DNA of 64,000 nt from Akkermansia muciniphila (GTDB taxonomy: Bacteria; Verrucomicrobiota; Verrucomicrobiia; Limisphaerales; BJHT01). The position numbers were made by a program, and so were the translations under genes. Shown here in pieces: positions 4,457 through 41,932 of this stretch. Positions within the stretch are counted from its first letter, which is position 1, and the number at the start of each line of letters is the position of its first letter. The stretch lies in assembly GCA_945861535.1 (NCBI GenBank), contig CAMAUZ010000013.1:37944-101943 (forward strand), in the 5' to 3' direction. The notes under the pieces are model-generated. The model did not search any database. It saw only the letters and a list, made by a program, of their open reading frames with translations, and was not told the origin of the DNA.

Positions 4457-6961
4457 ATGAAGAACCTCACCGCCGCCTTCAGTTGTCTTGCCGCCGTGAT
4501 TTTCGGATCGGCCCGACTCCCCGCGCAGACGCAGAGCGCCTTCCGCATTGCGCCGGCGGCGGAGCAGCTTCTCGGCACCCACTGCTCCTCCTGCCACGGC
4601 CCCGACAGCCAGAAAGGGGATGTGCGCTTTGACACGCTGGGCGCGCTGCCGCTCGCGGAACGGCTCGCTTTGCTGAACCGCATGCAGGAGCAAACCTTCA
4701 TCGGGCAGATGCCGCCGAAGAGCCGGAAGTCGCAGCCGACGTCGGCGGAGCGGCAGGCGTTGCTGGAGTGGATGGGCGGCGAGCTGCGCGTCCACAACGC
4801 CTCGACGCTGGAGGACAAGCTGCGCCTCCCGGCCTACGGGAACTATGTGGATCATGACCGGCTGTTCAGCGGCGAAATCGCGGATGCGCCCTTCACGCCG
4901 GCGCGGCGCTGGCTCGTAAGCCCGCAGATTTTTTCCCAACGGGCGAGCGATATTTTTGGTCCGCCGGGGCATGGTCGCCCGGCGAGCCTTTACGGAGTGA
5001 CGATTCCCTTCGTGCTGCCCGAGGCGTCCGGCGTGCGGTATTATGACAACGAATCGCTCGATGGCGGCGCGCTACTGGTCATGCTCGCGAACGCGGACTG
5101 GATTTCGCAGAAGCAGGTGCTCGGTGCGCGCGTGAAAGCCGGCGAGTTGAAGCCCGAGGATTTGCCGAACAGGCAGGACCGCTGGGTGCCGAAAAATTAT
5201 CCGGCGGCGTTCGATGCGATTGTGCTGAAAAAGTCCGCGCCCACGGACGCGGAAATCACCGAGGCGGTGCGCGCGCAATTTGCCAGTGTGCTGCAGCGCA
5301 AACCCGGCGAAGCGGAATTGGTGAAGTATGCCAAGCTGACGCGCGACGCCATCGCGATTGGCGGCAACACGGAAGGTTTGCGGCAGACGTTGCTGACGGT
5401 GCTGCTGGAGTCGGAGTTTCTCTACCGCTTGGAATTTGGTGCGGGGCCCGCAGACCGCTTTGGCCGAAAGATGCTCGCGCCCCGCGAAGGAGCGTATGCG
5501 CTGTCCTACGCGCTCGGCGACCGCGGTCCGGATGCGAAGCTGCTGCAGGCCGTCGAGCAGGGGCGGCTCGCCACGCGCGAGGACTACCAGCGCGAGGTGC
5601 TGCGACTCCTCGACGACAAGACCTACTTCGCCGCCGAGATTGACCCCAACATGGGCGGCAAAGTCGTCCGCACCGTCGTCAGCCACCCGCGCATCAACCG
5701 TTTCTTCCGCGAATTTTTCGGCTACCCGATGGCCACCCGCGTTTTCAAAGACCCCGAGCGCGGCCTCGGCATCTACCAAAACCCGGACCGCGGCACCACC
5801 GGCACGCCTGGCTTCCTCGTCAACGAGGCCGACCGCCTCGTGGAGGCGATTCTCCAGCAAGACAAGGATGTCTTCGCCACGCTACTCACGACTGACCGCT
5901 ACATCGTCTATTACGACCGAACGCCCGAGGCGGGCCGCGCGATTATCGCCGAGTGGCGGAAAGTGTGGGACGCCCTCAAAAACAAACCGTGGAAAACCGA
6001 ACCCGAAAAAGTCATCGCCGAAAACAAAGCCGTGTTTGCCGGTCTGAAACACTTCCGCCTGCCCGAGGGGCAGCACCAGAGACGCGAGTTCGTCTGGCAC
6101 ATGTGGTTCTTCAACGACTACTTCGACAAGGGCCTCACGCCGTTTACCACCATCTCCACCGCCCACGGCTACTACCTCAACCACTCGCCCTTCTATAACC
6201 TGCCGCCGACGCCGCTGCGGGGACGTTATACCCCCTTGGAAAATCGGAACTTCAAAGGCTTGGACCAAGCGACATTCTGGGATTACCCGCTGGAGCAGCC
6301 CTTCAAAATCGCCAACCGCAAAGGCATCCTCACGCATCCCGCGTGGCTCATCGCCCATTCGCTGAACACGGAAACCGACCCCGTCCGCCGGGGCCGATGG
6401 ATTCGCGAAAAGCTTCTCGCCGGACGCGTGCCCGACGTGCCCATCACGGTGGACGCCAAGGTTCCCGAGGACCACCACAAGACTCTTCGCGAGCGTCTCG
6501 AAAAAATCACCTCCGACCAGCAGTGCATCAAGTGCCACCAATACATGAACCCGCTCGGACTGCCCTTCGAGCAGTTCGACGACTTTGGCCGCTTCCGCGC
6601 GCAGGAGGCACTGGAACACGCCGAAAACATCGTCGGCAAGACGCCCGGCCCGAAGACCGACTTCCCGATTTACAAAACGCTGCCCGTGAACCCGCGCGGA
6701 GCACTCGACAGCACCGGAGCCGCCGCGCTCGACGGCGAGGTGAAGGACGCCTTCGACATGATTGACCGCATCGCAAAATCTCCGCGCGTCCGCCAGTCTT
6801 TCATCCGCCATGCGTTCCGCTTTTTCATGGGGCGAAATGAAATGCTCTCCGATTCGCGGACACTAATAGAAGCCGACAAAGCCTATCTCCAAAGCGGCGG
6901 CAGCTTCCGCGCCGTCGTTGTTTCGCTGCTCACTTCCGACTCGTTTCTCTACCGCAAATAA
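4457..6961 (+). CDS. DUF1592/DUF1588-family protein with N-terminal planctomycete-type cytochrome c motif (pair 1)
   Basis: Signal peptide MKNLTAAFSCLAAVIFGSARLPA. N-terminal CSSCHGPDSQKGDVRFD followed by GQMPPKSRKSQP. C-terminal HPAWLIAHS...DPVRRGRWIREKLL and a second CIKCHQYMNPLGLPFEQFDDFGRFR motif. Confidence 0.8.
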   Translation: MKNLTAAFSCLAAVIFGSARLPAQTQSAFRIAPAAEQLLGTHCSSCHGPDSQKGDVRFDTLGALPLAERLALLNRMQEQTFIGQMPPKSRKSQPTSAERQALLEWMGGELRVHNASTLEDKLRLPAYGNYVDHDRLFSGEIADAPFTPARRWLVSPQIFSQRASDIFGPPGHGRPASLYGVTIPFVLPEASGVRYYDNESLDGGALLVMLANADWISQKQVLGARVKAGELKPEDLPNRQDRWVPKNYPAAFDAIVLKKSAPTDAEITEAVRAQFASVLQRKPGEAELVKYAKLTRDAIAIGGNTEGLRQTLLTVLLESEFLYRLEFGAGPADRFGRKMLAPREGAYALSYALGDRGPDAKLLQAVEQGRLATREDYQREVLRLLDDKTYFAAEIDPNMGGKVVRTVVSHPRINRFFREFFGYPMATRVFKDPERGLGIYQNPDRGTTGTPGFLVNEADRLVEAILQQDKDVFATLLTTDRYIVYYDRTPEAGRAIIAEWRKVWDALKNKPWKTEPEKVIAENKAVFAGLKHFRLPEGQHQRREFVWHMWFFNDYFDKGLTPFTTISTAHGYYLNHSPFYNLPPTPLRGRYTPLENRNFKGLDQATFWDYPLEQPFKIANRKGILTHPAWLIAHSLNTETDPVRRGRWIREKLLAGRVPDVPITVDAKVPEDHHKTLRERLEKITSDQQCIKCHQYMNPLGLPFEQFDDFGRFRAQEALEHAENIVGKTPGPKTDFPIYKTLPVNPRGALDSTGAAALDGEVKDAFDMIDRIAKSPRVRQSFIRHAFRFFMGRNEMLSDSRTLIEADKAYLQSGGSFRAVVVSLLTSDSFLYRK

Positions 6962-6975
6962 AAAAACCACGACCT

Positions 6976-8388
6976 ATGCACCACCGCAGAGACTTCCTCA
7001 AAAACGCCTTCCTCGCCCTCGGCGGACTCTCGCTGCCCGGCTTCCTCCCGCGCCTTTCCGCCGCGCAGACCGTGCCGCTTTTGGGCCGCGCCACGCCGAT
7101 GCGTTTCATCTTCATGCACCGCGGCAACGGTCTCTTCCCCAAAGTCTGTGTGCCGCCAACGCTAGGCGCTGCGGAGCAGGAAAAAGAAAAGCGCAACGAC
7201 GCCTTCGAGGTGGACCTGGACAAACACCAACTCCCCGCGTGGATGGGGCCGCTGGAGGCGCACAAAAAGAACCTCACCATCATCCAGGGTCTCTCCGGAA
7301 AAATGTGTACCGTGGGCCATCACTCGTGGTGCTCCTCGCTCGGCGTCTATAAGGCCAACGAGCGGCCCAGCTCCATCAAATGGGCCACCGTGGACTTCGA
7401 GCTGGCGCGCCTTTTTCCCTCGCCGATGGAGCACATCGAACTGGCCTGCTTCCCCACCGACGGAGGCAATGCGCGCGGCAATCTCGACGGCATCGCGAAG
7501 GGTTTCTCCGCGCGCGGCCCGCAGCAGCCGAACTACGCCTTCGGTTCGCCCAAAATCGCGGTAGAGGAAATCTTCAAATCCGTCGCCGCGGACAAGACCG
7601 GCCAGGTGCAATATCAGCTCCAGCGCAAGGTGCTGGAGTTCGTCGCCGGCCACGAGACCGAACTCGCCCGGCAGCTCGCGGGCATCGAGCAGCGCAAGGT
7701 CGGCAACTACGCCGGCTCCATTGATGACATCCGCGAGCGCAACCGCAAAATTGACCTCATGGCCGACACCGTGCGCCGTCATGTGCCGAAGCTCGACAGC
7801 AAATACCTCGCGGAAAAGATGACCACGCTCGACCGCCAGATGGGCCACGCCGAGGTGCTCCTCGCCTCGCTCATCTCCGGCCTCACGAACGTCGTCTCCT
7901 TCACCGTGGATGAACTCGGCCACCACTACACCGGCATCCCCGGTATCGAAGGCGAAAACGTCAACATGCACGACGTGGGCCACGGCAAAACCATCGGCGG
8001 CCTCGAGGCCGTCGAAATCCGCCATCGCTCCGAGCTGCACCACATGAAGGTCATGGACAAAATCGTCGCCCGGCTGAAAAGCGTTCCCGAAGGCAAAGGC
8101 ACGATGTTCGACAACACGATGATTTTCTATTTCCCGAACAGCGGCGAAACGCATCACGCCCAAGGCACGGAATTCCCGTTCGTCGTGCTCTCCGGCTCGA
8201 ACACCAAACTCAAGCTCGGCAGCCGCTACATCCGCCTGCCCTACTGGGGCAATCCCGGCCACAAAACTCTCGGCAACTTCTACACCACCCTCCTCAACGC
8301 CTACGGCAACCCCATCAAACACTACGGCGACCCGGATCTAGGACTGAAGCTGGAGCAGACTGGCCCGATCCGGCAGTTCCTCTCCTGA
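6976..8388 (+). CDS. DUF1552 domain protein with twin-arginine signal (pair 1)
   Basis: MHHRRDFLKNAFLALGG Tat motif. Conserved GKGTMFDNTMIFYFPNSGETHH block. Starts 14 nt after the upstream stop. Confidence 0.8.
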   Translation: MHHRRDFLKNAFLALGGLSLPGFLPRLSAAQTVPLLGRATPMRFIFMHRGNGLFPKVCVPPTLGAAEQEKEKRNDAFEVDLDKHQLPAWMGPLEAHKKNLTIIQGLSGKMCTVGHHSWCSSLGVYKANERPSSIKWATVDFELARLFPSPMEHIELACFPTDGGNARGNLDGIAKGFSARGPQQPNYAFGSPKIAVEEIFKSVAADKTGQVQYQLQRKVLEFVAGHETELARQLAGIEQRKVGNYAGSIDDIRERNRKIDLMADTVRRHVPKLDSKYLAEKMTTLDRQMGHAEVLLASLISGLTNVVSFTVDELGHHYTGIPGIEGENVNMHDVGHGKTIGGLEAVEIRHRSELHHMKVMDKIVARLKSVPEGKGTMFDNTMIFYFPNSGETHHAQGTEFPFVVLSGSNTKLKLGSRYIRLPYWGNPGHKTLGNFYTTLLNAYGNPIKHYGDPDLGLKLEQTGPIRQFLS

Positions 8389-25228: not shown

Positions 25229-25250
25229 TTCAACCCACGAAATCTCACAT

Positions 25251-25323
25251 TTTTTACCGCACATCTTTTTGCCGGCCGCCCTCCGTCCCGGTGATAGCCG
25301 GCAAAAAGATGTGTGGTAAAAGA
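25251..25323. repeat. Palindromic element copy 1 (inside-out arm order: TTTTTACCGCACATCTTTTTGCCGGC - 20 nt - GCCGGCAAAAAGATGTGTGGTAAAAGA)
   Basis: The arms are reverse complements with 1 mismatch. Lies in the 111-nt spacer between the DUF1552 and DUF1592 genes. Confidence 0.85.
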
Positions 25324-25339
25324 TAACTGAAAAATACCC

Positions 25340-29335: not shown

Positions 29336-30652
29336 ATGCCCGCATCCAATCTTCCGTCCTATTCGTCCACCCGCCGTTTTTTCCTGCGAGCCACGGGAGT
29401 GAGCCTTGCCCTTCCGCTGCTCGAATCTCTGGGCGCGCGCGTCTTCGCTCAGAACTCCGCCGTCGGCACTTTGCCGGGGAAGGCGGCGGGCGCGGGGCGT
29501 CCCAAGCGGATGGTGTGCATCGGCAACTTGCTCGGCTTTTATCCTCAGGCGTTTTTCCCGGCGAGAACGGGAGCGGACTACGATCTGCCTGAGTCCATCG
29601 AAGCGCTGAAGCCGCATCAGAAGGACTTCACGCTTTTCTCCGGGCTCGACCACGGCGTGAAGGGCGGGCACTTCGCGATGAGTTCCTTCCTCAGCGGCGT
29701 GCGCACCGCGGATGCCAAGGGCATGCCCGAGGGCAACATCACCGTGGACCAGCGGGCGGCGGAAACGATGGGTGCTGCCACGAGGTTTCCTTCGCTCGCC
29801 CTTGGATCCGAGAGCGGCATTCATGGCGGCTGCCTCATGTCGTGGACACGCAGCGGCACGCGGGTGCCGCCGATCAGCACGCCGCGCGAGCTGTTCCGGA
29901 AACTGTTTGTCTCCGATGGTGCCGCCGACCTCGCAGCGTCGCTGGATCGCCTCGATATGAAAGGTTCGATCCTTGACGCGGTCCAGGGCGATGCAAAAAC
30001 CCTCGAACGCCGTCTGGGCCAGCGGGACAAGGAGAAGCTGGACGAGTATTTCACCTCTGTCCGAGATGTGGAAAAGCAGATCGAGCTGCGCCGCAAGTGG
30101 GCCGGCGTGCCCAAGCCTGATCCGAGAATGCCGGAGCCAGCGAACAAGGATTTTGTATCCGACCTGCCGGTGATGTATGACTTGATCGCGCTCGCCCTGC
30201 AGACTGATTCCACCCGCATCGCCACTCTGGAGATTGGCGGAGATTTCGAGGCTTCGGCCTTCGATTTGAAGGCCGGTTATCACAGCCTCTCGCACCACGG
30301 ACAGCGTGAGGAAGCGATCAAGGGCCTCATCAAGATGGAACGCTATCAGATCGAGCAGTTCGCGCGGTTCATCGCCAGGCTCAAATCCATCGAGGACGGC
30401 GCGGGCACGCTGCTGGATCACTCGATGGTTCTCTTCGGCAGCGGCATGGGCAACGCCAACTCGCACACGAACAACAACCTGCCGATCGTCCTGGCCGGCG
30501 GCGGTTTCAAGCACGGCGAGCACCGGACGTATCCGGCGAAGGGGCTCGGCCGCCAGCCCTTGTGCAATCTCTATCTGACCATGCTCCATCGCTTCGGCGC
30601 GGAGGTGAAAGCGTTTGGCACCAGCACCGGCACACTCACCGGCCTCGCATGA
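29336..30652 (+). CDS. DUF1552 domain protein with twin-arginine signal (pair 5)
   Basis: STRRFFLRATGVSLALPLLES Tat motif. LQTDSTRIATLEI, GYHSLSHHGQ and GSGMGNANSHTNNNLPIVLAGGG blocks. Close paralog of the 23969 gene. Confidence 0.8.
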   Translation: MPASNLPSYSSTRRFFLRATGVSLALPLLESLGARVFAQNSAVGTLPGKAAGAGRPKRMVCIGNLLGFYPQAFFPARTGADYDLPESIEALKPHQKDFTLFSGLDHGVKGGHFAMSSFLSGVRTADAKGMPEGNITVDQRAAETMGAATRFPSLALGSESGIHGGCLMSWTRSGTRVPPISTPRELFRKLFVSDGAADLAASLDRLDMKGSILDAVQGDAKTLERRLGQRDKEKLDEYFTSVRDVEKQIELRRKWAGVPKPDPRMPEPANKDFVSDLPVMYDLIALALQTDSTRIATLEIGGDFEASAFDLKAGYHSLSHHGQREEAIKGLIKMERYQIEQFARFIARLKSIEDGAGTLLDHSMVLFGSGMGNANSHTNNNLPIVLAGGGFKHGEHRTYPAKGLGRQPLCNLYLTMLHRFGAEVKAFGTSTGTLTGLA

Positions 30653-30731
30653 GCCGGCAAAAAGATGGGCGGTAAAAGATAGGAGGATTTTGCAAGCGAT
30701 TCTATTTTTCACCGCCCATCTTTTTGCCGGC
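30653..30731. repeat. Palindromic element copy 2
   Basis: GCCGGCAAAAAGATGGGCGGTAAAAGAT - loop - TTTTTCACCGCCCATCTTTTTGCCGGC. The stem has 21 perfect bp. Starts at the base after the DUF1552 TGA. The internal ATG frame hits TAG after 5 codons. Confidence 0.9.
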
Positions 30732-30743
30732 TAAAGACCACCC

Positions 30744-31529
30744 ATGCCAATCCACCGCACCATCGAGACCGTCCGCCCGACTCAATCCGAGTTCGGTCAA
30801 ATCGCCTTTGACGTGATGAAGTGCGTGTATGAGATCCACAATGAATTCGGCCGCTTCTTTGATGAAGCGGTTTACAAGCGCGAACTCGCCGCGAGGATGC
30901 CTGGCGTGGAACTGGAGGTCCCTGTCACCGTCTCCCATAAAACGTTCTCGAAGCTCTACAAGCTCGACGTTCTGGCGCACCGGCGAGGCGTTTTCGAGTT
31001 CAAGGCTGCCGAGACTATTGTTCCCCGTCATCGCGGCCAGACCATCAACTCCCTGCTCCTCTTTGACCTCCCGCACGGCAAACTCATCAACGTCCGGCCC
31101 GAGCGAGTCAACGATGAGTTCGTGAACTGCCACCTGCGGCTGGAGGCGTTGCGAAATCCATCCGTGGACACAGCCAGTTTCGTTTCCACCGTTGCCGGAG
31201 CAGCCTTCTTTCATGACCACCTGCTCACCTTGATCCGCGACTGGGGTTCCGGCCTTGAGACCGGGCTTTACGAAGAAGGACTCTCTCACTTTCTTGGTGG
31301 CGATGAGCGGGCTCTACAGCCTGTGCCGGTGATGGGATCCAAAGGACATCTGCACGATCAAAAGATGCGTCTGTTGGCACCGGATGTCGCCTTCAAGCTC
31401 ACCGCCTTTCCCGATCGGCTGGAGGCCTTTGAGACGCATGCCCGACGCCTACTTCAGCATACTTCGCTTAAAGCCATTCATTGGGCCAACATCACTCATA
31501 GCCATGTTACCTTCACGACCATCCACTAA
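30744..31529 (+). CDS. GxxExxY-like / PD-(D/E)XK-fold protein with an extra C-terminal region (function unknown)
   Basis: FGRFFDEAVYKRELAARMPGVELEVPVTVSHK...YKLDVLAHRRGVFEFKAAE...GKLINV follows the GxxExxY-family layout (acidic LDV plus ExK). The identification is by eye only. Confidence 0.45.
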   Translation: MPIHRTIETVRPTQSEFGQIAFDVMKCVYEIHNEFGRFFDEAVYKRELAARMPGVELEVPVTVSHKTFSKLYKLDVLAHRRGVFEFKAAETIVPRHRGQTINSLLLFDLPHGKLINVRPERVNDEFVNCHLRLEALRNPSVDTASFVSTVAGAAFFHDHLLTLIRDWGSGLETGLYEEGLSHFLGGDERALQPVPVMGSKGHLHDQKMRLLAPDVAFKLTAFPDRLEAFETHARRLLQHTSLKAIHWANITHSHVTFTTIH

Positions 31530-31536
31530 CTTTTTC

Positions 31537-31610
31537 GCCGGCAAAAAGATGTGCGGTAAAAAATGGGGACTCCTGTTTTTCCTATTTTTCACCGCCCATC
31601 TTTTTGCCGG
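31537..31610. repeat. Palindromic element copy 3 (overlaps the start codon and signal peptide of the downstream gene)
   Basis: GCCGGCAAAAAGATGTGCGGTAAAAAATGGGGA - loop - TTTTTCACCGCCCATCTTTTTGCCGG. Starts 8 nt after the upstream TAA. Confidence 0.9.
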
Positions 31611-34035
31611 ACCTCCGGAGATCCGACGTTTCCTCACCACCTATTGCAACGACTGCCACGGCGCGGAAAAACAAAAGGGCGATCGGCGCTTTGATAAGCT
31701 GCTGCTGCCCGCCACCAAGGTGGACACGCTGATCGATCTCAAAGACATCCTCGATCAAATCAACCTCGGCGAAATGCCGCCGAAAAAATCGAAGCAACCG
31801 TCGCAGCTGGAGCAAAAGGTCTTTATCGAGCAGGCGACTCTCGCGCTCACCGAAGGTCGTGAGAGTCTCGCCAGCACCGATGGCAGCAGCGTGTTGCGTC
31901 GTCTCAACCGCCGCGAATACATCAACACCATCGGCGACCTGTTCGCGATGAATATGGCGGCCTTCGATCCCACCACGAAGTTTCCGCGCGACCAGTCCGC
32001 CGAGCACATGGAGAATCTCGGCGATGTGCTCCAGACCTCGGGCTATCTGTTGGAGCAATATCTCGATGCGGCGGACGCCATCGTTAAGAAGGCGTTCGCA
32101 GTTCAAAAGCAGCCGGATGAGCGCGTTTGGAACTTCCGCGAGAACTTCAAGCCGCAGCAGGAATTAAGCGGCCCGCATCGCCGCCTCCAAAACGCATTTA
32201 TCGGCCTTTACGAATGCATGGCCACCCCAAACCACGAGGGCGGCTACGGCTTCATCAGCGACTTTCAGCAAGGAGTGCCGGTGGACGGAATCTACGAGAT
32301 TCGCGTCCTTGCCCAGGCCATGAACCGGCAGCATCCGTATGATCCGAAAATCTTCGGGACCGACTCACGCGAGCCTTTCCGCCTCGGCTTGGTGCCCGGC
32401 GATGCGAAAGCCGGTCCGCTGTATCAGCCGCAGCCGCTCCAGCCCATGCTCGCCGAGCAGGCTCTGCAAGATGGCGAACCCGAATGGCACACGATGAAGG
32501 TCTGGCTGGATGCCGGACATACACCGCGATTTGTTTTCCTCAATGGCCCGAAAAGCGCACGCAGTTCCTGGGCCCGAATCGTGGAATACCACAAGGACAA
32601 ATGGCCGGCGACCACATCGAAGCGGGACCGCAAGAACGGCCTCGGCATCGTCGAAAATCGCATTCTCAGCATCGTCGAAGGAAAAGTGCCGCACATTCGC
32701 ATCAGCGAGGTGCAGATTCGCGGACCCATCGTCGAGCAGTGGCCGCCCGCTCCCCAGCAGGCCGTTTTGGGAAAGACTGCCTTCGCTCCGGAGAAGATGC
32801 GCGAAGTCCTCCAATCCTTCGCCGACCGAGCTTATCGCCGTCCGGCCAGCCAGGCCGAAGTGGATCGACTCATGGCCGTCGCCAGGAAACGCACGAGCAC
32901 CGGCCGTTCGCCGCAGGAAGGTCTGAAGGACGCTCTCAAGGCAGCGCTCTGCTCGCCCGCCTTCATCTATCTCTCGCAGGATGCCGTGGAGCCAAAAAGT
33001 GACTCGAAAGCACGTCCCAAGCTCACCGCCTACGCGCTCGCCTCGCGGCTGTCCTATTTCCTCTGGTCAACCATGCCGGATGCGGAGTTGCTCCGGCTGG
33101 CGCACAGTCAGGAGCTAACCAAGCCAGCGGTGCTCATTGCACAGACGCGCCGCATGTTGGCCAGCCCGCGCTCCGAGGCCTTCGTGTCGGGCTTTCTCGA
33201 CAGTTGGCTGAACCTCCGCAGCCTCGGAGGCATGCCGCCGGATCGGAAGGATTTTGAAACGTATTACTCCAAGGGCCTGGAGCACGCCTTCAAGCAAGAG
33301 ACACGGCTTTTCATGCGCGACCTCATCGAGCGCGATGCCAGCATCGTAAACTTCCTCAACAGCGACTACGGCTTCGTCAATCAACCGCTCGCCACGCACT
33401 ACGGTCTCGGTGAACTCGGCGATCCGGCCAAGGCGCATGAGTTCCGCAAAGTCAGCTTCAAGACCGACAAGCGCGGCGGCCTGCTCGGCATGGGCTCCGT
33501 GCTCACCATCACCGCCAACGGCATCGAGACTTCGCCCGTCGTGCGTGGGGTCTATCTGCTGGAAAACATCCTCGGCACGCCGCCGCCGCCGCCGCCCGAT
33601 GACGTGCCTGCTATCGATCCCGATGTGCGCGGAGCCAAATCCATGCGCGAGTTGCTCAGCAAACATCGCGAATCGCCGAACTGCGCCGGCTGCCATCAAA
33701 AGATCGACCCACTCGGATTCGCGTTGGAGAACTTTGATCCCATCGGAGGCTGGCGGACGAGCTATGGCAAAACCCCGATCGACACCGCCGGAGAACTGCC
33801 CAGCGGCGATAAGTTCTCGGACGTCGCCGGCCTGAAGGGAATCCTCGTCAAACGCCAGGCCCTCTTCGCCCGGATGCTCACCGATCGCCTCCTCACCTAC
33901 GCTTGCGGTCGCCGCATCGGTGCGCTCGACGAGCCCACCGTGGCAAGAATCGTTGCCGAAATGCCGAGGCACAAACACGGCCTCCGCTCACTTCTCGAAG
34001 CCGTAGTGACGAGCGAACTGTTCCTCAGCCGTTGA
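31549..34035 (+). CDS. DUF1592/DUF1587/DUF1588/DUF1585-family cytochrome-c-motif protein (pair 5)
   Basis: ATG 31549 is the first in-frame start after the upstream gene. N-terminus MCGKKWGLLFFLFFTAHLFAG, then CNDCHGAEKQKGDRRFD, GEMPPKKSKQP, RRLNRREYINTIGDLF, LASRLSYFLWSTMPD, SPVVRGVYLLENILG, CAGCHQKIDPLGFALENFD. Confidence 0.85.
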   Translation: MCGKKWGLLFFLFFTAHLFAGPPEIRRFLTTYCNDCHGAEKQKGDRRFDKLLLPATKVDTLIDLKDILDQINLGEMPPKKSKQPSQLEQKVFIEQATLALTEGRESLASTDGSSVLRRLNRREYINTIGDLFAMNMAAFDPTTKFPRDQSAEHMENLGDVLQTSGYLLEQYLDAADAIVKKAFAVQKQPDERVWNFRENFKPQQELSGPHRRLQNAFIGLYECMATPNHEGGYGFISDFQQGVPVDGIYEIRVLAQAMNRQHPYDPKIFGTDSREPFRLGLVPGDAKAGPLYQPQPLQPMLAEQALQDGEPEWHTMKVWLDAGHTPRFVFLNGPKSARSSWARIVEYHKDKWPATTSKRDRKNGLGIVENRILSIVEGKVPHIRISEVQIRGPIVEQWPPAPQQAVLGKTAFAPEKMREVLQSFADRAYRRPASQAEVDRLMAVARKRTSTGRSPQEGLKDALKAALCSPAFIYLSQDAVEPKSDSKARPKLTAYALASRLSYFLWSTMPDAELLRLAHSQELTKPAVLIAQTRRMLASPRSEAFVSGFLDSWLNLRSLGGMPPDRKDFETYYSKGLEHAFKQETRLFMRDLIERDASIVNFLNSDYGFVNQPLATHYGLGELGDPAKAHEFRKVSFKTDKRGGLLGMGSVLTITANGIETSPVVRGVYLLENILGTPPPPPPDDVPAIDPDVRGAKSMRELLSKHRESPNCAGCHQKIDPLGFALENFDPIGGWRTSYGKTPIDTAGELPSGDKFSDVAGLKGILVKRQALFARMLTDRLLTYACGRRIGALDEPTVARIVAEMPRHKHGLRSLLEAVVTSELFLSR

Positions 34036-34086
34036 TTCCTTGACCCAACGAAAACGACACAATCCTTTATGAAGCCAACCTGCATA

Positions 34087-34160
34087 GCCGGCAAAAAGAT
34101 GGGCGGTAAAAAATGGGGACTTCTCTTCTCCTTATTTTTTACCGCCCATCTTTTTGCCGC
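34087..34160. repeat. Palindromic element copy 4 (overlaps the start and signal peptide of the sulfatase fragment)
   Basis: GCCGGCAAAAAGATGGGCGGTAAAAAATGGGGA - loop - TTTTTTACCGCCCATCTTTTTGCCGC. Confidence 0.9.
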
Positions 34161-34722
34161 TCCTCCCGCCGACAAAGCGCCGGGCAAACAATACAACGTG
34201 CTGTTCATCGCCGTCGACGACTTGAACGACTGGGTCGGGGCCTTCGGCGGCGCGCCCCAAAAGAAGTCGGCGACGCCCAAGCTGGATAAATTCGCGAAGA
34301 GCGGCTCGGTCGTTTTCCAGCAGGCGAATTGCGCGGGCCCGGTCTGTGGCCCGTCGCGCTCGGCTTTGCTGTCGGGCTTTATGCCGAATCGGTCGGGTGT
34401 TTACGGCAACGCTCATAACATGCGCAACTCCGCGCTCGTGCAGACCCACCTCACGCTGCCGGAGTATTTTTCGAAGCATGGCTACCGCACGCTCTCAAGC
34501 GGCAAGATTTTCCATAAACATGCCGGCGACGAGGGCCATTGGGCGTTTGACCAGTGGGTCGCCACTGAAGGCGGCAGCGGTTCGCAGGTTGATCCCCAGC
34601 GTCTGACCTCCCGGAGTCGCAACCTGATTGACGGCAAGCCCGCGCCATTTGCCCCGGCCAAGGGCGAGGGCAACGCCGACGGCGAAGGCGGGGGCACGGA
34701 ATTCTCCTGGGGACCGGCCTGA
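34099..34722 (+). pseudogene. Sulfatase, N-terminal half only (truncated)
   Basis: NVLFIAVDDLNDW and the CGPSRSALLSGF (CxPxR) signature are present. The ORF ends after about 207 codons, whereas the intact sulfatases here are about 450-540 aa. Alternative start ATG 34069. Confidence 0.7.
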
Positions 34723-34949
34723 AGTAGTCGCGGTGCGCTCAAGCATGAATCAGTCGCTGCAAATGGATTGCCCCGCCCCGAAATCGTGGCGCGTCTGGCT
34801 GCCGCCGCCGCCGAATGGAACCGCGGCCTCATCGCCCCCGCCTTCGGCAACAATCCTTTCGGCGGCCTCATCAACCGCACCATACTGGAGAAAAATTCGA
34901 CCCCTTGAAGCGCAATGAGGACTACCAGTCTTTCGCAACCACGCATCCA

Positions 34950-35501
34950 ATGAACCCACGCACCCTTCTTTTATCCATCGCTCTTTCAGCCAGCGCCGTC
35001 GCCGGTTTCGCGCAGGACTCCGCGGATGTCATCGTCTATGGCTCCACGCCCGGCGGGTTCTGCGCGGCCATCGCTGCGGCGCGCGAGGGGGCTTCGGTTA
35101 TTTTGCTGGAGCCGACGGAGCACGTCGGCGGGCTGAGCACGGGCGGGCTGAGCCACTGCGACTCGAATCAGATGCGGCGGGAGACTTTGATGGGACTCTT
35201 CGACGAGTGGCATCGGCGCGTGGTGAAGGACTACACGGACCGCGGGCTTGCAGCTCCCTACGATGCGGCGCTTAAGGACACCGCACGCTGGACGTTTGAG
35301 CCGCATGTGGCGATGCGCGTGACGACGGCGATGCTCAAGGAAGCGGGCGTGGTGGTGCGGACCGGGCGGTATTTGAAATCGGTCACGAAAGAAGGGCCGC
35401 GCATCACTTCGCTCACCGCGAAGGACGGCAAGTTCACGGCGAAAGTATTCGTGGACGGCTCCTACGAAGGCGACCTCATGGCTGCCGCTGGCGTGGACTG
35501 A
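34950..35501 (+). CDS. FAD-dependent oxidoreductase, N-terminal part; ends at an in-frame TGA
   Basis: Signal-like MNPRTLLLSIALSASAVAGFA. Dinucleotide-binding VIVYGSTPGGFCAAIAAAREG...LEPTEHVGGLSTGG. Confidence 0.7.
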   Translation: MNPRTLLLSIALSASAVAGFAQDSADVIVYGSTPGGFCAAIAAAREGASVILLEPTEHVGGLSTGGLSHCDSNQMRRETLMGLFDEWHRRVVKDYTDRGLAAPYDAALKDTARWTFEPHVAMRVTTAMLKEAGVVVRTGRYLKSVTKEGPRITSLTAKDGKFTAKVFVDGSYEGDLMAAAGVD

Positions 35502-35570
35502 ACGATTGGCCGCGAGGGGCGCGCCGAGTTCGGTGAATCCTACGCGGGGAAGCAGTATCCCAAAAAGAAA

Positions 35571-37022
35571 ATGGACATCAGCGGCTTCGATGACGCGGGC
35601 AAACTGCTGCCGCTCGTGACGACCAGCGACGCCGGGCCGGACGAAGCGGGCGACAAGAACATCATGACCTACAGCTTCCGGCTCTGCCTCACGCGAGACC
35701 CGGCCAAGATGGTTTCCATGCCCGCGCCGACGAACTACAACCCCGCCCGATTCGAGCTGGCGCGCCGCGCGCTCAAAGTCGGTGTCAAAGCGGGCTTCGA
35801 CCTCTACCCGTTGCCGGGCAACAAGCTCGACGGCAACAACTCCATTCACGGACAGGTTTCCCTCGGCCTTGTCGGTGCCGGCAACGACTGGCACAGCGCC
35901 GATGAAGCAGGCCGGCAGAAGATTTGGGAGGACCACAAACAATACACGCTTGAGTTCCTGCACTTCCTCCGCACCGACCCCGCCGTGGCGCCGAAAGTCC
36001 GTGGCGAGTTTGCCGGCCTCGGTCTTTGCCAAGACGAGTTTGCGGCGACCGCCCACTTTCCGCCTGCGCTCTATGTGCGCGAATCGCGGCGGATGAAGGG
36101 CCTGCATGTGATCTCGCAAAAGGACATCATTACCTCGCCGGAAAAGGCCGACCCCATCGCCGTCTCGTCGTTCCCGATTGATTCGCACGACTGCCAGCGC
36201 GTCGCGTTGAAAGACGGTGGCGTCATCAATGAGGGCACGATTTTTCCCGTGCGAGTCCCCGGCAGCAAAGTGGGCTACGCCTACCATGTGCCCTATCGCT
36301 CCGTGCTGCCGCAGGCCAGCCAATGCAACAACCTGCTCGTGCCCGTCGCGCTTTCCTCCACGCATGTCGCGATGTCATCGCTTCGGATCGAAGGCGCATG
36401 GATGGCCATCGGCCAGGGCGCGGGTGTCGCCGCGGCGCTGGCGGCGAAACAATCCGTCGCCGTGCAAGACCTGCCCTATCCCGTCCTGCGCCAGCGACTC
36501 CTCGCGCAAGGGCAAGTGCTCGACCTCCCCGCAGTTTCCAAACCAGCGGCGGCGAAGGAGGCTGACTTCATCCCCGTGAAGTCGCTCCCCGGCATCGTGC
36601 TCGACGACGCCGATGCGCAACTCGTCGGCGCATGGACGCAGTCCACGAACTTCAAACCACACATCGGCAGCGGCTACCGCGTCCACGGAGCCAAGGACGC
36701 CCGCGCCGACGGCACAGCCACCGCCACCTTCCGCGTCAAAGTGCCGACGTCCGGCGAATACCAGGTGCTGATGTCCTACTCCGCGCATGAAACCCGCGCC
36801 AAAAACGTGCCCGTCACCATCGTCAGCGGCACCCGCGAGACGAAGCTCACCGTGGACCAAACCAAGCCCATGCCCGCCGGTCAGCACTTTCAGCCCATCG
36901 GCACGGCGACGCTCACATCGGATGGCGAAACAACTCTTCGAATCCAAACCACCGACACCACCGGTTTCGTCATCCTCGACGCCGTGCAGTTGGTTTTGAG
37001 CCGGCAAAAAGATGGGCGGTAA
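35571..37022 (+). CDS. Continuation of the same FAD-dependent oxidoreductase (same frame; open from 35502)
   Basis: Frame identical to 34950..35501. Codons 35502-35570 read TIGREGRAEFGESYAGKQYPKKK without a stop. The last 7 codons and the TAA lie inside palindromic element copy 5. Confidence 0.7.
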   Translation: MDISGFDDAGKLLPLVTTSDAGPDEAGDKNIMTYSFRLCLTRDPAKMVSMPAPTNYNPARFELARRALKVGVKAGFDLYPLPGNKLDGNNSIHGQVSLGLVGAGNDWHSADEAGRQKIWEDHKQYTLEFLHFLRTDPAVAPKVRGEFAGLGLCQDEFAATAHFPPALYVRESRRMKGLHVISQKDIITSPEKADPIAVSSFPIDSHDCQRVALKDGGVINEGTIFPVRVPGSKVGYAYHVPYRSVLPQASQCNNLLVPVALSSTHVAMSSLRIEGAWMAIGQGAGVAAALAAKQSVAVQDLPYPVLRQRLLAQGQVLDLPAVSKPAAAKEADFIPVKSLPGIVLDDADAQLVGAWTQSTNFKPHIGSGYRVHGAKDARADGTATATFRVKVPTSGEYQVLMSYSAHETRAKNVPVTIVSGTRETKLTVDQTKPMPAGQHFQPIGTATLTSDGETTLRIQTTDTTGFVILDAVQLVLSRQKDGR

Positions 37023-37074
37023 AAAATGTGATGAAATGGATTCCCCATCTTTTACCGGCCATCTTTTTGCCGGC
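37000..37074. repeat. Palindromic element copy 5
   Basis: GCCGGCAAAAAGATGGGCGGTAAAAAATG - loop - TCCCCATCTTTTACCGGCCATCTTTTTGCCGGC. Contains the upstream gene's stop codon (37020-37022). Confidence 0.9.
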
Positions 37075-37096
37075 CTGTATGCCCAACATTACTCCT

Positions 37097-39691
37097 ATGA
37101 TCACACGCCTCACATTCCTCGGTTTGATTCTCGGTTTATCCTTCTCGTCCGCAGATGCTCAGAATGCCGCCGTCGGTTCGCCCCGGCTGGTTCTGGATGC
37201 GGACACGGGCATAACCATTCGCGAGGGCTTCGACGCTGAATTGCTCTACGAGGTGCCCAAGTCTCAGGGCTCGTGGGTGGCGATGGCGTTTGATCCGAAA
37301 GGCCGGCTCATCGTTTCCGATCAGGATGACAAGGGTGTGTTCCGCGTGACGCTGCCCACCGGGGGTGCCGGAATCAAAGTCGAGAGCCTGCCCGGATTTC
37401 CTTACGAGCCGGTGGACTGGGGGAGGCGCAAGGTCGGCGGTGCGTATGGCTTTCTCTACGCGTTCGATAGTCTCTACATGGCGAACATGCGGGGCTTTTA
37501 CCGCATCCGCGACACAGATGGGGACGACCAGTTTGACGAATTCACGCTGCTGAAGAAACTCGACATGGGCTACGAGCACTCGGCGCACTGCATCATCCAG
37601 ACGGCTGACGGCAAGGGGCTTTATCTGGTGAGCGGAAACTTCACCCGAGTGCCAAAAGGGACCGTTCCCTCGCAGCCGCCGGTATGGCAGGAGGACACGC
37701 TCATGCCCGTGATTCCCGACCCTTCGGGCCACGCCGTGGGACTCAAGCCTCCGGGCGGCTGGATTTGCCGCATTTCACCCGACGGCAGCGACTGGAGGAT
37801 GATTGCGTCCGGCTTCCGCAACTCGGTGGACATCGCGCTGAATCGCGAGGGCGAACTTTTCACTTACGATTCCGACATGGAGTTTGATGTTGGCGTCCCG
37901 TGGTATCGGCCCACGCGCATCAATCACGTCACCAGCGGCGCGGAGTTTGGCTGGAGGGCGAACTCGGGGGTGTGGCTGGACTATTTCGCCGACAGCCTCG
38001 GCTCGGTGCTCGACATCGGCCCCGGCTCCCCGACGGCCATCAGCTTCGGGCATCACTCGAAGTTTCCGGCGGAGTTTCAGGACAAGCTCTTCATCTGCGA
38101 CTGGACGTTCGGCACGATTTTCACCGTGGAGCTGCAGGAAAGCGGTTCGAGCTACACCGGCACGAAGTCGGAGTTTCTCCACGGCAGCCCGCTGAACATC
38201 GCGGCGATGCGCTTCGGGCCGGACGGTGCGATGTATTTCGTCACCGGCGGACGCACGACAGCCTCGCGGCTCTATCGAGTCCGCCACACAGGCGCGCCGA
38301 CGACGGGCGTGCCGAGGACACTGCTGGCCAACAGCGAACTGCGGGTGTTGCGGCATTCGTTGGAGAAATTCCATGCACGCGGCGAGAGCGCCGACGCCGT
38401 GGAAAAGGCATGGCCGCATCTCGCGCACGCTGACCGCAGCATTCGCTACGCAGCGCGCATCGCCATCGAGAACCAGGGCGTGGCGCTCTGGCAGGAAATG
38501 GTCTTCGCGGAGAAGAACCCGCGCGCGGCGATTTATGCCGCCATCGCGTTGACCCGCCATGGCGACAAATCCCTGTCCGGGCGGCTGATTGACAAGCTCG
38601 CCGAGGTGCCATTTGGCTCGCTTGCGCAAGAAGACCAGCTCGCGCTGCTCCGCGCCTACGCGCTGTGTTTTATGCGATTTGGCCTGCCCGCCGAGGATAA
38701 GACGGCGGCAGTCATCGCCAGGCTGGATGCTCATTTCCCGTCTAAGGATGACACGGTGAACGCCGAACTATGCCGTGTGCTGTCATCGCTCGATGCTCCC
38801 ACAGTGGCGCGGAAAACCATCGGGCTGATGAAAGCCACCCGCGTCGAGACAGTGGCCTACGACAAGGCCATGCTGGGCCGTCACGAGTATGGCGCGGCCA
38901 TTTTGAAGATGATGGCCAACACGCCCAACACGCGAAATATCCACTACGCGTATTTCCTGCGGCGCGTGCGAAGCGGGTGGACGCTCGAGGACCGCAAATA
39001 CTTCTTCGGCTGGCTGAACGAGGCGTTGGCCAAGGACGGCGGCAAGAGCTTTGCCGGATACATCCGGGCCATTCGCAAGGACGCCATCGCGCAACTGGAG
39101 ACCAAGGATGTCGAGCTGATGGCCGGGTTGCTGGAGGACTTTCCCGCTTTCGACCTTTCCAAACTCCCGAAGCCCAAAGGCCCGCCTGTCGCATGGACGG
39201 TGGAGACGGCGATGAACCTGTTTGAGCCGGAGCTTCGCGGCCGGGATTTCGCGAACGGGAAGAAGATGTTCGCCGCCGGATACTGCATCGCCTGTCATCG
39301 CGTCGGCGGCGAAGGCGGCCACTCTGGTCCTGACCTCGGCTCGCTGGGAAATCGCTTTTCCATCCGGGACATTCTCGTCGCCATCTGTGAACCCAGCGCC
39401 TCGGTCTCCGACCAATACCTCGCCAGCGTGGTGAAGCTCAAAGACGGCGACACGCTCAACGGCCGCCTCATTTTCAAGAACGACAAGGAAGTCGGCGTCG
39501 CCACGAATCCGTTTGATTTGAACCAGGTCACGAAAGCGCCGGCGGACCAGGTGGTCGGCATCGCTTCCTCGCAAGTTTCGATGATGCCATCGGAGCTGCT
39601 CTCAGGCATGAACCGCGATGAGCTGATGGACCTGATGGCCTATCTGCTCTCAGGCGGAAACTCGCAGCACAAGGCTTTCAAAAAGGAATGA
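37097..39691 (+). CDS. PVC-type heme-binding protein: putative membrane-bound dehydrogenase (beta-propeller) + HEAT-like repeats + C-terminal cytochrome c domain
   Basis: Signal peptide MITRLTFLGLILGLSFSSADA. C-terminal GYCIACHRVGGEGGHSGPDLGSLG heme c motif. Alternative starts are 37079 or 37028. Confidence 0.75.
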   Translation: MITRLTFLGLILGLSFSSADAQNAAVGSPRLVLDADTGITIREGFDAELLYEVPKSQGSWVAMAFDPKGRLIVSDQDDKGVFRVTLPTGGAGIKVESLPGFPYEPVDWGRRKVGGAYGFLYAFDSLYMANMRGFYRIRDTDGDDQFDEFTLLKKLDMGYEHSAHCIIQTADGKGLYLVSGNFTRVPKGTVPSQPPVWQEDTLMPVIPDPSGHAVGLKPPGGWICRISPDGSDWRMIASGFRNSVDIALNREGELFTYDSDMEFDVGVPWYRPTRINHVTSGAEFGWRANSGVWLDYFADSLGSVLDIGPGSPTAISFGHHSKFPAEFQDKLFICDWTFGTIFTVELQESGSSYTGTKSEFLHGSPLNIAAMRFGPDGAMYFVTGGRTTASRLYRVRHTGAPTTGVPRTLLANSELRVLRHSLEKFHARGESADAVEKAWPHLAHADRSIRYAARIAIENQGVALWQEMVFAEKNPRAAIYAAIALTRHGDKSLSGRLIDKLAEVPFGSLAQEDQLALLRAYALCFMRFGLPAEDKTAAVIARLDAHFPSKDDTVNAELCRVLSSLDAPTVARKTIGLMKATRVETVAYDKAMLGRHEYGAAILKMMANTPNTRNIHYAYFLRRVRSGWTLEDRKYFFGWLNEALAKDGGKSFAGYIRAIRKDAIAQLETKDVELMAGLLEDFPAFDLSKLPKPKGPPVAWTVETAMNLFEPELRGRDFANGKKMFAAGYCIACHRVGGEGGHSGPDLGSLGNRFSIRDILVAICEPSASVSDQYLASVVKLKDGDTLNGRLIFKNDKEVGVATNPFDLNQVTKAPADQVVGIASSQVSMMPSELLSGMNRDELMDLMAYLLSGGNSQHKAFKKE

Positions 39692-41804: not shown

Positions 41805-41857
41805 AAATTTCTGAACGTAGCAAGATGACATGCTCACACACAAGGACCGGGGTTTGG

Positions 41858-41932
41858 GCCGGCAAAAAGATGGGCGGTAAAAGATGGGGACTGCTGTTCT
41901 TCCTGTTTTTCACCACACATCTTTTTGCCGGC
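41858..41932. repeat. Palindromic element copy 6 (overlaps the start and signal peptide of the downstream gene)
   Basis: GCCGGCAAAAAGATGGGCGGTAAAAGATGGGGA - loop - TTTTTCACCACACATCTTTTTGCCGGC. Confidence 0.9.

Follow-up and report, generated by a model that had tools for sequence, protein, structure and literature searches.

Comparative analysis of a 64,000-nt stretch of DNA (hereafter the window) revealed that the position of a sulfatase signal peptide is occupied by a short palindromic repeat. The most probable explanation is that a MITE/REP-like palindrome, linked to a GxxExxY (PDDEXK_3) nuclease gene, replaced the signal-peptide coding region of the sulfatase, and that the resulting module is portable. 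Sequence comparison established the anatomy of the locus, showed that the native signal had been replaced and that the sulfatase 5′ ends are mosaic, and identified an internal deletion in the gene and purifying selection on the corresponding gene of a related genome (G041).

Results

A palindrome in frame with a sulfatase gene

The sulfatase region of the window comprises the following features (a slash marks a signal-peptide cleavage site):

34036–34086, + strand: 51-nt spacer from the DUF1592 stop codon to the palindrome, containing an in-frame ATG at 34069 (MKPTCIAGKK), the likely true start
34087–34160, no strand assigned: palindrome copy 4, with an A-rich left arm, a 9-nt loop tip and a T-rich right arm, translating as AGKKMGGKKWGLLFSLFFTAHLFA
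34159–34194, + strand: linker APPADKAPGKQY, from the predicted cleavage site (LFA/A) to the sulfatase fold, part of a shared 5′ module
34195–34716, + strand: sulfatase body of the P0032 type, N-terminal 174 residues (NVLFIAVDD to EFSWGP), with a CGPSR motif at 34345–34359
34716–34722, + strand: deletion junction and out-of-frame stop (left flank to 34716, filler G at 34717, right flank from 34718, TGA at 34720–34722)
34723–34949, + strand: downstream relic that includes the tail of a second, 477-aa-type sulfatase (34768–34908, containing EWNRGLIAPAFGNNPFGGLINRT), not part of the truncated gene

Positions 34087–34160 form a near-perfect palindrome of about 75 nt whose in-frame translation is MGGKKWGLLFSLFFTAHLFA. 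Its arms (34089–34119 and 34129–34159) are 31 nt each and 94% complementary, with the order GCCGGCAAAAAGATGGGCGGTAAAAAATGGGGA, 9-nt loop, TCCTTATTTTTTACCGCCCATCTTTTTGCCG. On the + strand the locus reads AGKK-MGGKKWGLLFSLFFTAHLFA-APPADKAPGKQY-NVLFIAVDD, and re-reading confirmed the coordinates and frame that the initial annotation had given for this palindrome-headed sulfatase; the distance to NVLFIAVDD, which it had put at about 15 residues, is 12 from the last palindrome-encoded Ala (start at 34195). When folded as RNA, copy 4 in its 161-nt context reached −60.3 kcal/mol (z = −7.7), and none of 200 shuffled sequences folded as well; the 75-nt element by itself folded at −51.2 kcal/mol with 32 bp.

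The composition of the repeat suggests how a palindrome might come to resemble an export signal. The A-rich left arm (AAA AAG ATG GGC GGT AAA AAA) encodes a Lys-rich n-region, the loop (TGG GGA CTN CTN TTY ...) gives WGLLF, and the T-rich right arm, as reverse complement of the left (TTT TTT ACC GCC CAT CTT TTT GCC), gives FFTAHLFA. Arms and loop would thereby jointly provide n-region, h-region and the Ala at −1, ending at the GCCG terminus of the palindrome. Since the reverse complement of Lys codons consists of Phe and Leu codons, an A-rich/T-rich palindrome would be pre-adapted to serve as an n-region followed by an h-region.

The start codon had been placed at ATG 34099, which lies within the left arm. 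This ATG is unlikely to be used because it is buried in the 31-bp stem (about −51 kcal/mol), and the likely true start is ATG 34069, which precedes the stem base by 18 nt, is not part of the hairpin and is kept in G041 (as MKPTFMPGKK). An in-frame ATG is likewise found 10–16 codons upstream in nearly every copy of the signal-peptide type, whatever its flank, and in none of the intergenic copies. The ribosome would then load at 34069 and unwind the stem while elongating. With this start, part of the n-region is not element-derived; the earlier proposal that ATG, n-region, h-region and HLFA all come from the element thus holds for the h-region and HLFA, for which loop and right arm encode WGLLFSLFFTAHLFA (34114–34158), and probably fails for the ATG and part of the n-region.

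The predicted signal was compared with those of 48 sulfatase paralogs from the same genome. Counted from ATG 34069 the n-region is MKPTCIAGKKMGGKK, and the 10 residues before the hydrophobic window carry a net charge of +4 (median +2 for the paralogs). The best 12-residue Kyte-Doolittle mean of the h-region WGLLFSLFFTAHLF, which includes Thr and His, is 1.96, near the bottom of the paralog range (1.82–3.17, median 2.59), and 13 residues separate the h-region from the N motif (median 11, interquartile range 10–13). The residues around the predicted cleavage site are L(−3) F(−2) A(−1)/A, of which Ala at −1 fits, while Leu at −3 is allowed but atypical under the −3/−1 rule. The h-region changes between the genome of the window (G000) and G041 exchange hydrophobic for hydrophobic residues (L to V, F to L, L to I). 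Across 12 copies of the signal-peptide type, the minimum numbers of loop substitutions at codon positions 1, 2 and 3 were 10, 3 and 8; because T is kept at position 2, the residues stay hydrophobic, a trend that is only suggestive as support for a signal peptide. The peptide is predicted to be translated from 34069, competent for export and cleaved after LFA, and a hairpin of about −51 kcal/mol within the first 30 codons should hinder its translation.

The native signal has been replaced

Six near-identical palindromes, with terminal inverted repeats, occur in the window, and the 24-nt arm is found 12 times at up to 3 mismatches, where chance would yield none. The other five, and the arrangement that contains copies 2 and 3, are:

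25245–25325: palindrome copy with inverted arm order
30652–30732: copy 2, 5′ of the GxxExxY/PDDEXK_3 gene
31537–31611: copy 3, supplying the predicted signal peptide of the DUF1592 gene
30652–31611, + strand: apparent parent arrangement of copy 2, the GxxExxY/PDDEXK_3 gene (30744–31529) and copy 3
37000–37074, no strand assigned: copy 5, intergenic with a flipped loop, 4 nt upstream of the ATG (37079) of a gene whose native signal peptide is retained
41857–41932: palindrome copy heading a 524-aa ORF that matches neither Pfam nor NCBIfam

The closest relative found was L095, an ENA metagenome contig that is nearer to G000 than is G041, a MAG labelled Chthoniobacteraceae (JANNWY01). Nucleotide identities to the window were 91.8% (DUF1552), 83.4% (DUF1592) and 91.4% (sulfatase) for L095, versus 84.1%, 79.2% and 76.3% for G041. 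L095 contains no palindrome arms at up to 5 mismatches and no GxxExxY gene. Its homology with the window ends at the DUF1552 stop codon (30652) and picks up where palindromes 3 and 4 finish at their 3′ edges (31608 and 34158, respectively). At the position of palindrome 4, the L095 sulfatase (P0032) has an ordinary signal peptide, MTRNPLLRAFRSVALATLCFGLGSLHA/AEKARAPYNVLFIAVDD, and at the position of palindrome 3 its DUF1592 gene has another, MLRFSCLLIVALLAVAATPIQA/ATDAALVQRFLTTYC. The block 30652–31611 stands for only 105 nt of L095, made up of an intergenic stretch and the native signal peptide MLRFSCLLIVALLAVAATPIQA. The palindrome 4 junction falls at the predicted cleavage site and coincides with the LHA/AEK site of L095.

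Ordinary signals were also the rule among other relatives. Each of the best 60 orthologs (66–89% identical to the G041 protein) had an ordinary, non-palindromic signal peptide, as did the more distant G034 and G022 orthologs, and no palindrome arms were present in the loci of six native-signal orthologs (L002, L003 and L095–L098). The same-genus genomes G001–G003 were unusable for this comparison, their best sulfatase match, at 41–45% identity, not being a close ortholog. Orthologous sulfatases, including that of L095 at 91% nucleotide identity, thus have a different, non-element signal peptide at the same place. From these ordinary signals and the empty sites of L095, it follows that the palindrome stands in place of a native signal, and the earlier assignment of this position to the element was borne out. 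L095, which lacks every copy at the syntenic positions, represents a presence/absence polymorphism, and because each filled site has also lost native sequence, the events are replacements rather than clean insertions.

Copy 5, in which a palindrome lies beside a retained native signal, shows an intermediate stage; in G041, the orthologous 884-aa gene has lost its native signal and reads MFGKRWGLLISVFFTAHLFAG straight from the palindrome. The loop of copy 5 is oriented oppositely to that at the corresponding G041 site (contig C27; L093 reverse complement, 6508–6582), with 85% identity on the opposite strand and 77% on the same strand. A flip of the loop between the arms or two independent insertions would account for this. 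Upstream of that G041 palindrome is a remnant of the 3′ end of a GxxExxY gene (ATCTTIR and stop).

Further features of this comparison were recorded. A FAD_oxidored gene plus copy 5 (window 34919–37156, about 2.2 kb) takes the place of a 169-nt intergenic stretch in L095 (7684–7852), and the last codons and stop (TAA) of that gene lie inside the left arm of copy 5. The DUF1592 gene of L095 (2070–2424) is itself interrupted, with an in-frame TAG about 105 codons from its start, and is called as PSCyt1 plus a 711-aa protein.

The repeat family and its linked gene

Across the 7.9-Mb genome, the exact subfamily numbers about 7 copies, all within 17 kb except for one inside-out copy (contig C110), and the looser family built on the unit GGTAAAAGATGGGSGGTAAAAGAT gives 87 matches. 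A description as a dispersed MITE of this genome was dropped, given the restriction of the exact subfamily to the 17-kb stretch and the C110 copy; the 87 matches belong to the broader GGTAAAAGAT family. Motifs related to GGTAAAAGATGGGSGGTAAAAGAT also mark at least two other composite repeat types in this genome (e.g. C13:19646–19845, C46:23043–23242 and C64:9266–9465), one with arms inverted around a 37-nt core and a conserved flank GGAAAGCCGGAACTGTGAAGCCGAGGTTTTGCAAGTGCCTC, the other with a spacing of about 180 nt within a larger inverted repeat.

No target-site duplication or direct repeat was seen at the flanks of the five copies checked, and no cognate transposase was recognisable. The sole linked gene encodes the PDDEXK_3/GxxExxY protein (30744–31529; PF13366, E = 7e-14; TIGR04256, E = 5.5e-14), and only two of the six such genes in the genome are flanked by this kind of palindrome. 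Two more, without this palindrome (C74:27900–28238 and C77:25706–26035), lie in the interval that follows a DUF1592-type gene and precedes a DUF1552-type gene, so this small nuclease-like gene family seems to favour the DUF1592/DUF1552 pair. An integron attC-like cassette array, an idea raised by the regular spacing between genes, found no support, the flanked genes being syntenic with palindrome-free L095. Consensus scans for a terminator or promoter role gave nothing above shuffled background.

Beyond this genome, a 22-mer of the arm was found in 51 contigs in a scan of one genome per species, from Verrucomicrobiota- and Planctomycetota-labelled MAGs, and in a further 37 contigs in a metagenome scan; genomes G001–G003 had only single degraded arms. 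The bins of contigs with the identical 22-mer (L043, L045, L046, L050, L052, L059, L060, L066, L071, L073, L074, L083, L087 and L088) include both Verrucomicrobiota and Planctomycetota (Pirellula, Planctomycetaceae, Planctomycetia), and in L052, labelled Pirellulaceae, the DUF1592 N-terminus is almost identical to that of the window. Either the element crosses phyla or some of these short contigs are mis-binned.

Most copies in genomes and metagenomes are non-genic, with a minority in frame at the head of long ORFs, where they translate as Mx-GK(K/R)-WGLL..FFTAHLFA(G/A). The in-frame carriers are DUF1592 proteins, a 1105-aa PSCyt-type protein, 706-aa, 884-aa and 1211–1248-aa proteins, and sulfatases; in the 1211–1248-aa carriers the left arm has decayed and the right-arm peptide is retained. 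The initial annotation had proposed that one cassette serves unrelated protein families, and this was upheld, since the palindrome heads DUF1592, PSCyt-type, 884-aa and sulfatase genes and the 524-aa ORF.

These copies make it very improbable that the palindrome-like N-termini are a conserved signal-peptide family inherited with the genes instead of being derived from a repeat. The three signal-peptide-type copies of the window do differ mainly at synonymous or conservative sites, as inheritance would predict, but the same sequence also occurs between genes with stop codons in the loop and inverted arm order, it is a 94% complementary DNA palindrome, and its carriers are unrelated families whose close orthologs have unrelated signal peptides. 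The empty-site allele and the non-genic copies contradict shared ancestry directly.

Two variant arrangements were observed. Tandem arrays with a period of about 169 nt occur in L079 (5682–6087) and also in L057, L080, L085 and L109, each unit containing the palindrome, the first codons of DUF1592 (GPSPEFLKT...) and the last codons of GxxExxY (ANITHRHVTCTTIR and stop); they look like repeated recombination footprints of the GxxExxY cassette. A 73-nt palindrome variant (L040 108–174; L054 7453–7519; L016 and L082 near 575) reads the right arm in the other frame (MxGEKW....SIFYRxSFCR) and is followed by a separate h-region, similar among the copies (LLLTALLLAPLAA, ILFVLLLTPLAAL and LLFITLLLAPLVAL). 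Its carriers are a FAD-binding protein, a sulfatase and another ORF, and it may be a second, longer portable signal module.

The stems of coding copies had been expected to be weaker than those of intergenic copies, and this was refuted, mean stabilities being −38.7 kcal/mol for signal-peptide-type and −36.0 kcal/mol for intergenic copies. As coding hairpins are as stable as intergenic ones, selection on DNA or RNA structure is possible. The palindrome could accordingly be a nucleic-acid element (a translational attenuator, an mRNA-stability hairpin or a recombination site of the GxxExxY cassette), its hairpin maintained by selection and its reading as a signal a by-product. Besides the equal stabilities, this would fit the location of intergenic copies 4–20 nt upstream of start codons, the flipping of loops between orthologous sites, and the 73-nt variant, where the palindrome, read as IFYRTSFCR ahead of a separate h-region, is only an N-terminal extension. 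Several observations nevertheless make such a role, taken as the whole explanation, improbable. The G041 sulfatase copy has 3–4 uncompensated left-arm changes and its peptide is still signal-like; in L103 and L107 the left arm has decayed and only the right-arm peptide is left, on proteins that exceed 1200 aa and are intact; and the carriers retain no native signal, so that, if they are exported, the palindrome peptide must do that job. A search of Rfam gave no family match, the best hits being sub-threshold microRNA-like hairpins. A nucleic-acid role and the replacement of a signal peptide by a repeat are compatible and not mutually exclusive.

A separate deletion truncated the sulfatase

The sulfatase fragment matches Pfam PF00884 (E = 2e-16) over profile positions 2–135 of 301, leaving an incomplete catalytic domain in which CGPSR is kept. 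As the initial annotation had stated, the reading frame is truncated at 34722, ending with the TGA at 34720–34722. Alignment with the intact gene of L095 showed that the window joins L095 position 6627 to 7575, with a net loss of 946 nt and CC microhomology at the junction. The deletion removes codons about 210 to about 525 of P0032, shifts the frame and leads to an immediate TGA. With the fragment at 91.4% nucleotide identity to L095 overall, 97–98% in its 3′ half, and a dN/dS of 0.094 against P0032, the deletion is probably recent.

The junction lies 560 nt downstream of the palindrome, and the alignment demonstrates that this internal deletion, separate from the element, inactivated the sulfatase. 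The possibility that insertion of the element had itself destroyed the gene, which had been considered at the outset, was thereby discounted, and the signal peptide in this genome is a relic on a pseudogene. The relic downstream (34723–34949) matches L095 5859–6004 (84%) and 7575–7683 (88%) and has no Pfam match. Its segment 34768–34908 was rejected as the C-terminus of the truncated gene itself, since in the L095 alignment it is a different, 477-aa-type tail that lies downstream of the intact gene there too.

The next gene, FAD_oxidored/Golvesin_C (34950–37022), contains a single in-frame TGA at 35499–35501 (GVD-stop-TIGREG) that splits a continuous Pfam match; nonsense mutation, sequencing error and recoding of the codon are all possible sources. 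With the truncated sulfatase next to it, this gives two broken genes side by side, and the locus may be decaying.

The 5′ module is joined to two sulfatase bodies

G041 is colinear with window positions 29371–34715 at 81% identity, with the gene order DUF1552, palindrome, GxxExxY gene, palindrome, DUF1592, spacer, palindrome, sulfatase. Its palindrome-headed sulfatase stays open up to the contig end, over at least 418 codons, and has the same spacer, palindrome and linker as the window on another sulfatase body. Spacer and palindrome are 85% identical to the homologous G041 stretch and are missing from L095; the linker is common to G041 (EPPGEPPGKQY) and differs from those of the nearest relatives of the body, P0032 (AEKARAPY) and P0004 (AEIARPPY).

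When the 5′ ends of five sulfatase genes were aligned, the 5′ module (upstream ATG, palindrome and linker to ...PGKQ) was 78–93% identical between G000 and G041, versus only 40–56% against P0032 and P0004. Past YNVLFIA the relationship changed: G000 tracked P0032 (87–98%), G041 tracked P0004 and P0002 (82–96%), and identity between G000 and G041 fell to 65–83%. The switch point lies inside the conserved NVLFIAxDDLNDW block, and a switch within a motif common to all sulfatases is a signature of homologous recombination or gene conversion. This mosaic structure demonstrates, at the level of aligned sequences, that one 5′ module has been joined to two different sulfatase bodies, apparently by recombination in that block. 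With the tree ((G000, L095), G041) and the element present in G000 and G041, either recombination or loss from the L095 lineage is implied.

On the G041 terminal branch dN/dS was 0.158, compared with 0.149 and 0.121 for native-signal relatives, a test that detects purifying selection on the G041 sulfatase and cannot place the signal swap on the branch. The open frame of at least 418 codons and this low ratio argue that the module is portable and compatible with a working gene. That the cassette is a portable module, and not a product of shared gene ancestry, had been suggested from the window by itself; the unrelated carrier families and the two sulfatase bodies now argue for it, the attachment to two bodies most strongly. 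A metagenome scan for the sulfatase-specific junction CCCATCTTTTTGCCGNNCCTCCCG gave no matches, and the broader arm scan identified no further sulfatase carriers.

The same data bear on whether the palindrome is simply a passenger, in that the palindrome or a nearby deletion removed the native signal and left an N-terminus that does not function in export, its carriers becoming pseudogenes. Truncation of the sulfatase and the in-frame stop in the next gene would agree with this, as would a hydrophobicity near the bottom of the family range, a start-codon region locked in a very stable hairpin, and the non-genic position of most copies. We nonetheless consider it unlikely. The G041 gene is open and has a dN/dS (0.16) like that of native-signal relatives, the inactivating deletion in the window is unrelated to the element, and the fusion point lies at the cleavage site in three separate genes. 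In addition, intact palindrome-headed genes exist for DUF1592 (828 aa here), PSCyt (1105 aa, and 1211–1248 aa with a decayed left arm) and the 884-aa protein.

Discussion

A bolder reading, which we regard as unlikely, treats the GxxExxY/PDDEXK_3 cassette together with the palindromes around it as a 'self-healing' mobile unit that enters genes for secreted proteins at their 5′ ends, by insertion or recombination. The palindrome would be shaped so that either strand reads as a Lys-rich, then hydrophobic, then Ala-Gly sequence, and a disrupted gene would at once regain a start region and an export signal, much as phages rebuild the tRNA gene into which they integrate. A palindrome standing alone, like the sulfatase copy, would mark a site from which the nuclease gene has been lost, and such footprints would then spread as ready-made export modules via recombination in conserved motifs.

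Like REP/REPIN-RAYT elements and other MITEs (Correia, ERIC, BOX), the palindrome is short, hairpin-forming, multi-copy and mostly intergenic, and sometimes flanks a single protein gene. It differs from REP/RAYT in that the linked gene is PDDEXK_3/GxxExxY and not an IS200-like Y1 (RAYT) transposase, and from MITEs in that there is no target-site duplication and all but one of about 7 copies lie within 17 kb. Presence and absence between relatives, the one basis for this view, suggest that the palindrome is mobile.

The nearest precedent is the Yersinia RU-2/YPAL repeat (Delihas 2007, PMC2759123; reviewed in PMC2229807), a 168-bp repeat that forms part of the predicted signal peptide of YPO1552; no other direct precedent was found in the literature on palindromic repeats or Rickettsia palindromic elements (RPE) and signal peptides. 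There, too, a predicted signal is derived from a repeat and homologues in other genera have unrelated signal sequences (PMC2759123). In YPO1552, however, the repeat contributes part of a 41-residue predicted signal in one small ORF of unknown function, whereas here a 75-nt palindrome gives n-region lysines, the whole h-region and the −1 Ala, and is found again in at least five families of large conserved proteins that are unrelated to one another. Both an empty-site allele and the swapping of the module between two sulfatase bodies are documented here. RPE (Ogata et al. 2000, as described in PMC2759123, PMC2229807 and PMC10969869) are palindromic repeats translated in frame, with other copies intergenic. 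In the accounts given by these sources they are insertions of 100–150 bp that contribute surface loops and leave the protein otherwise as it was, with no replacement of a functional targeting signal and no report of movement as a module between genes. Membership of the present element in RPE is implausible, the likeness lying only in in-frame translation, and both host phylum and element length differ. In-frame translated palindromic repeats are thus already known; what is new is that essentially a whole signal comes from a 75-nt palindrome, in several unrelated families, with an empty site and module exchange.

For annotation, gene callers will choose ATG 34099 or miss such starts, and signal-peptide predictors may under-call such proteins in Planctomycetota-Verrucomicrobiota-Chlamydiota genomes. 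The usual view is that a signal peptide evolves in place, along with its gene. The present locus is a naturally occurring example of a non-coding palindromic repeat that assumes the position of an export signal and is then exchanged between genes as a module, and it comes with a comparative series: an empty site with the native signal (L095), a palindrome beside a retained signal (37000), and a palindrome joined to the gene in the signal position (in G041, and in the window at 31537 and 34087).
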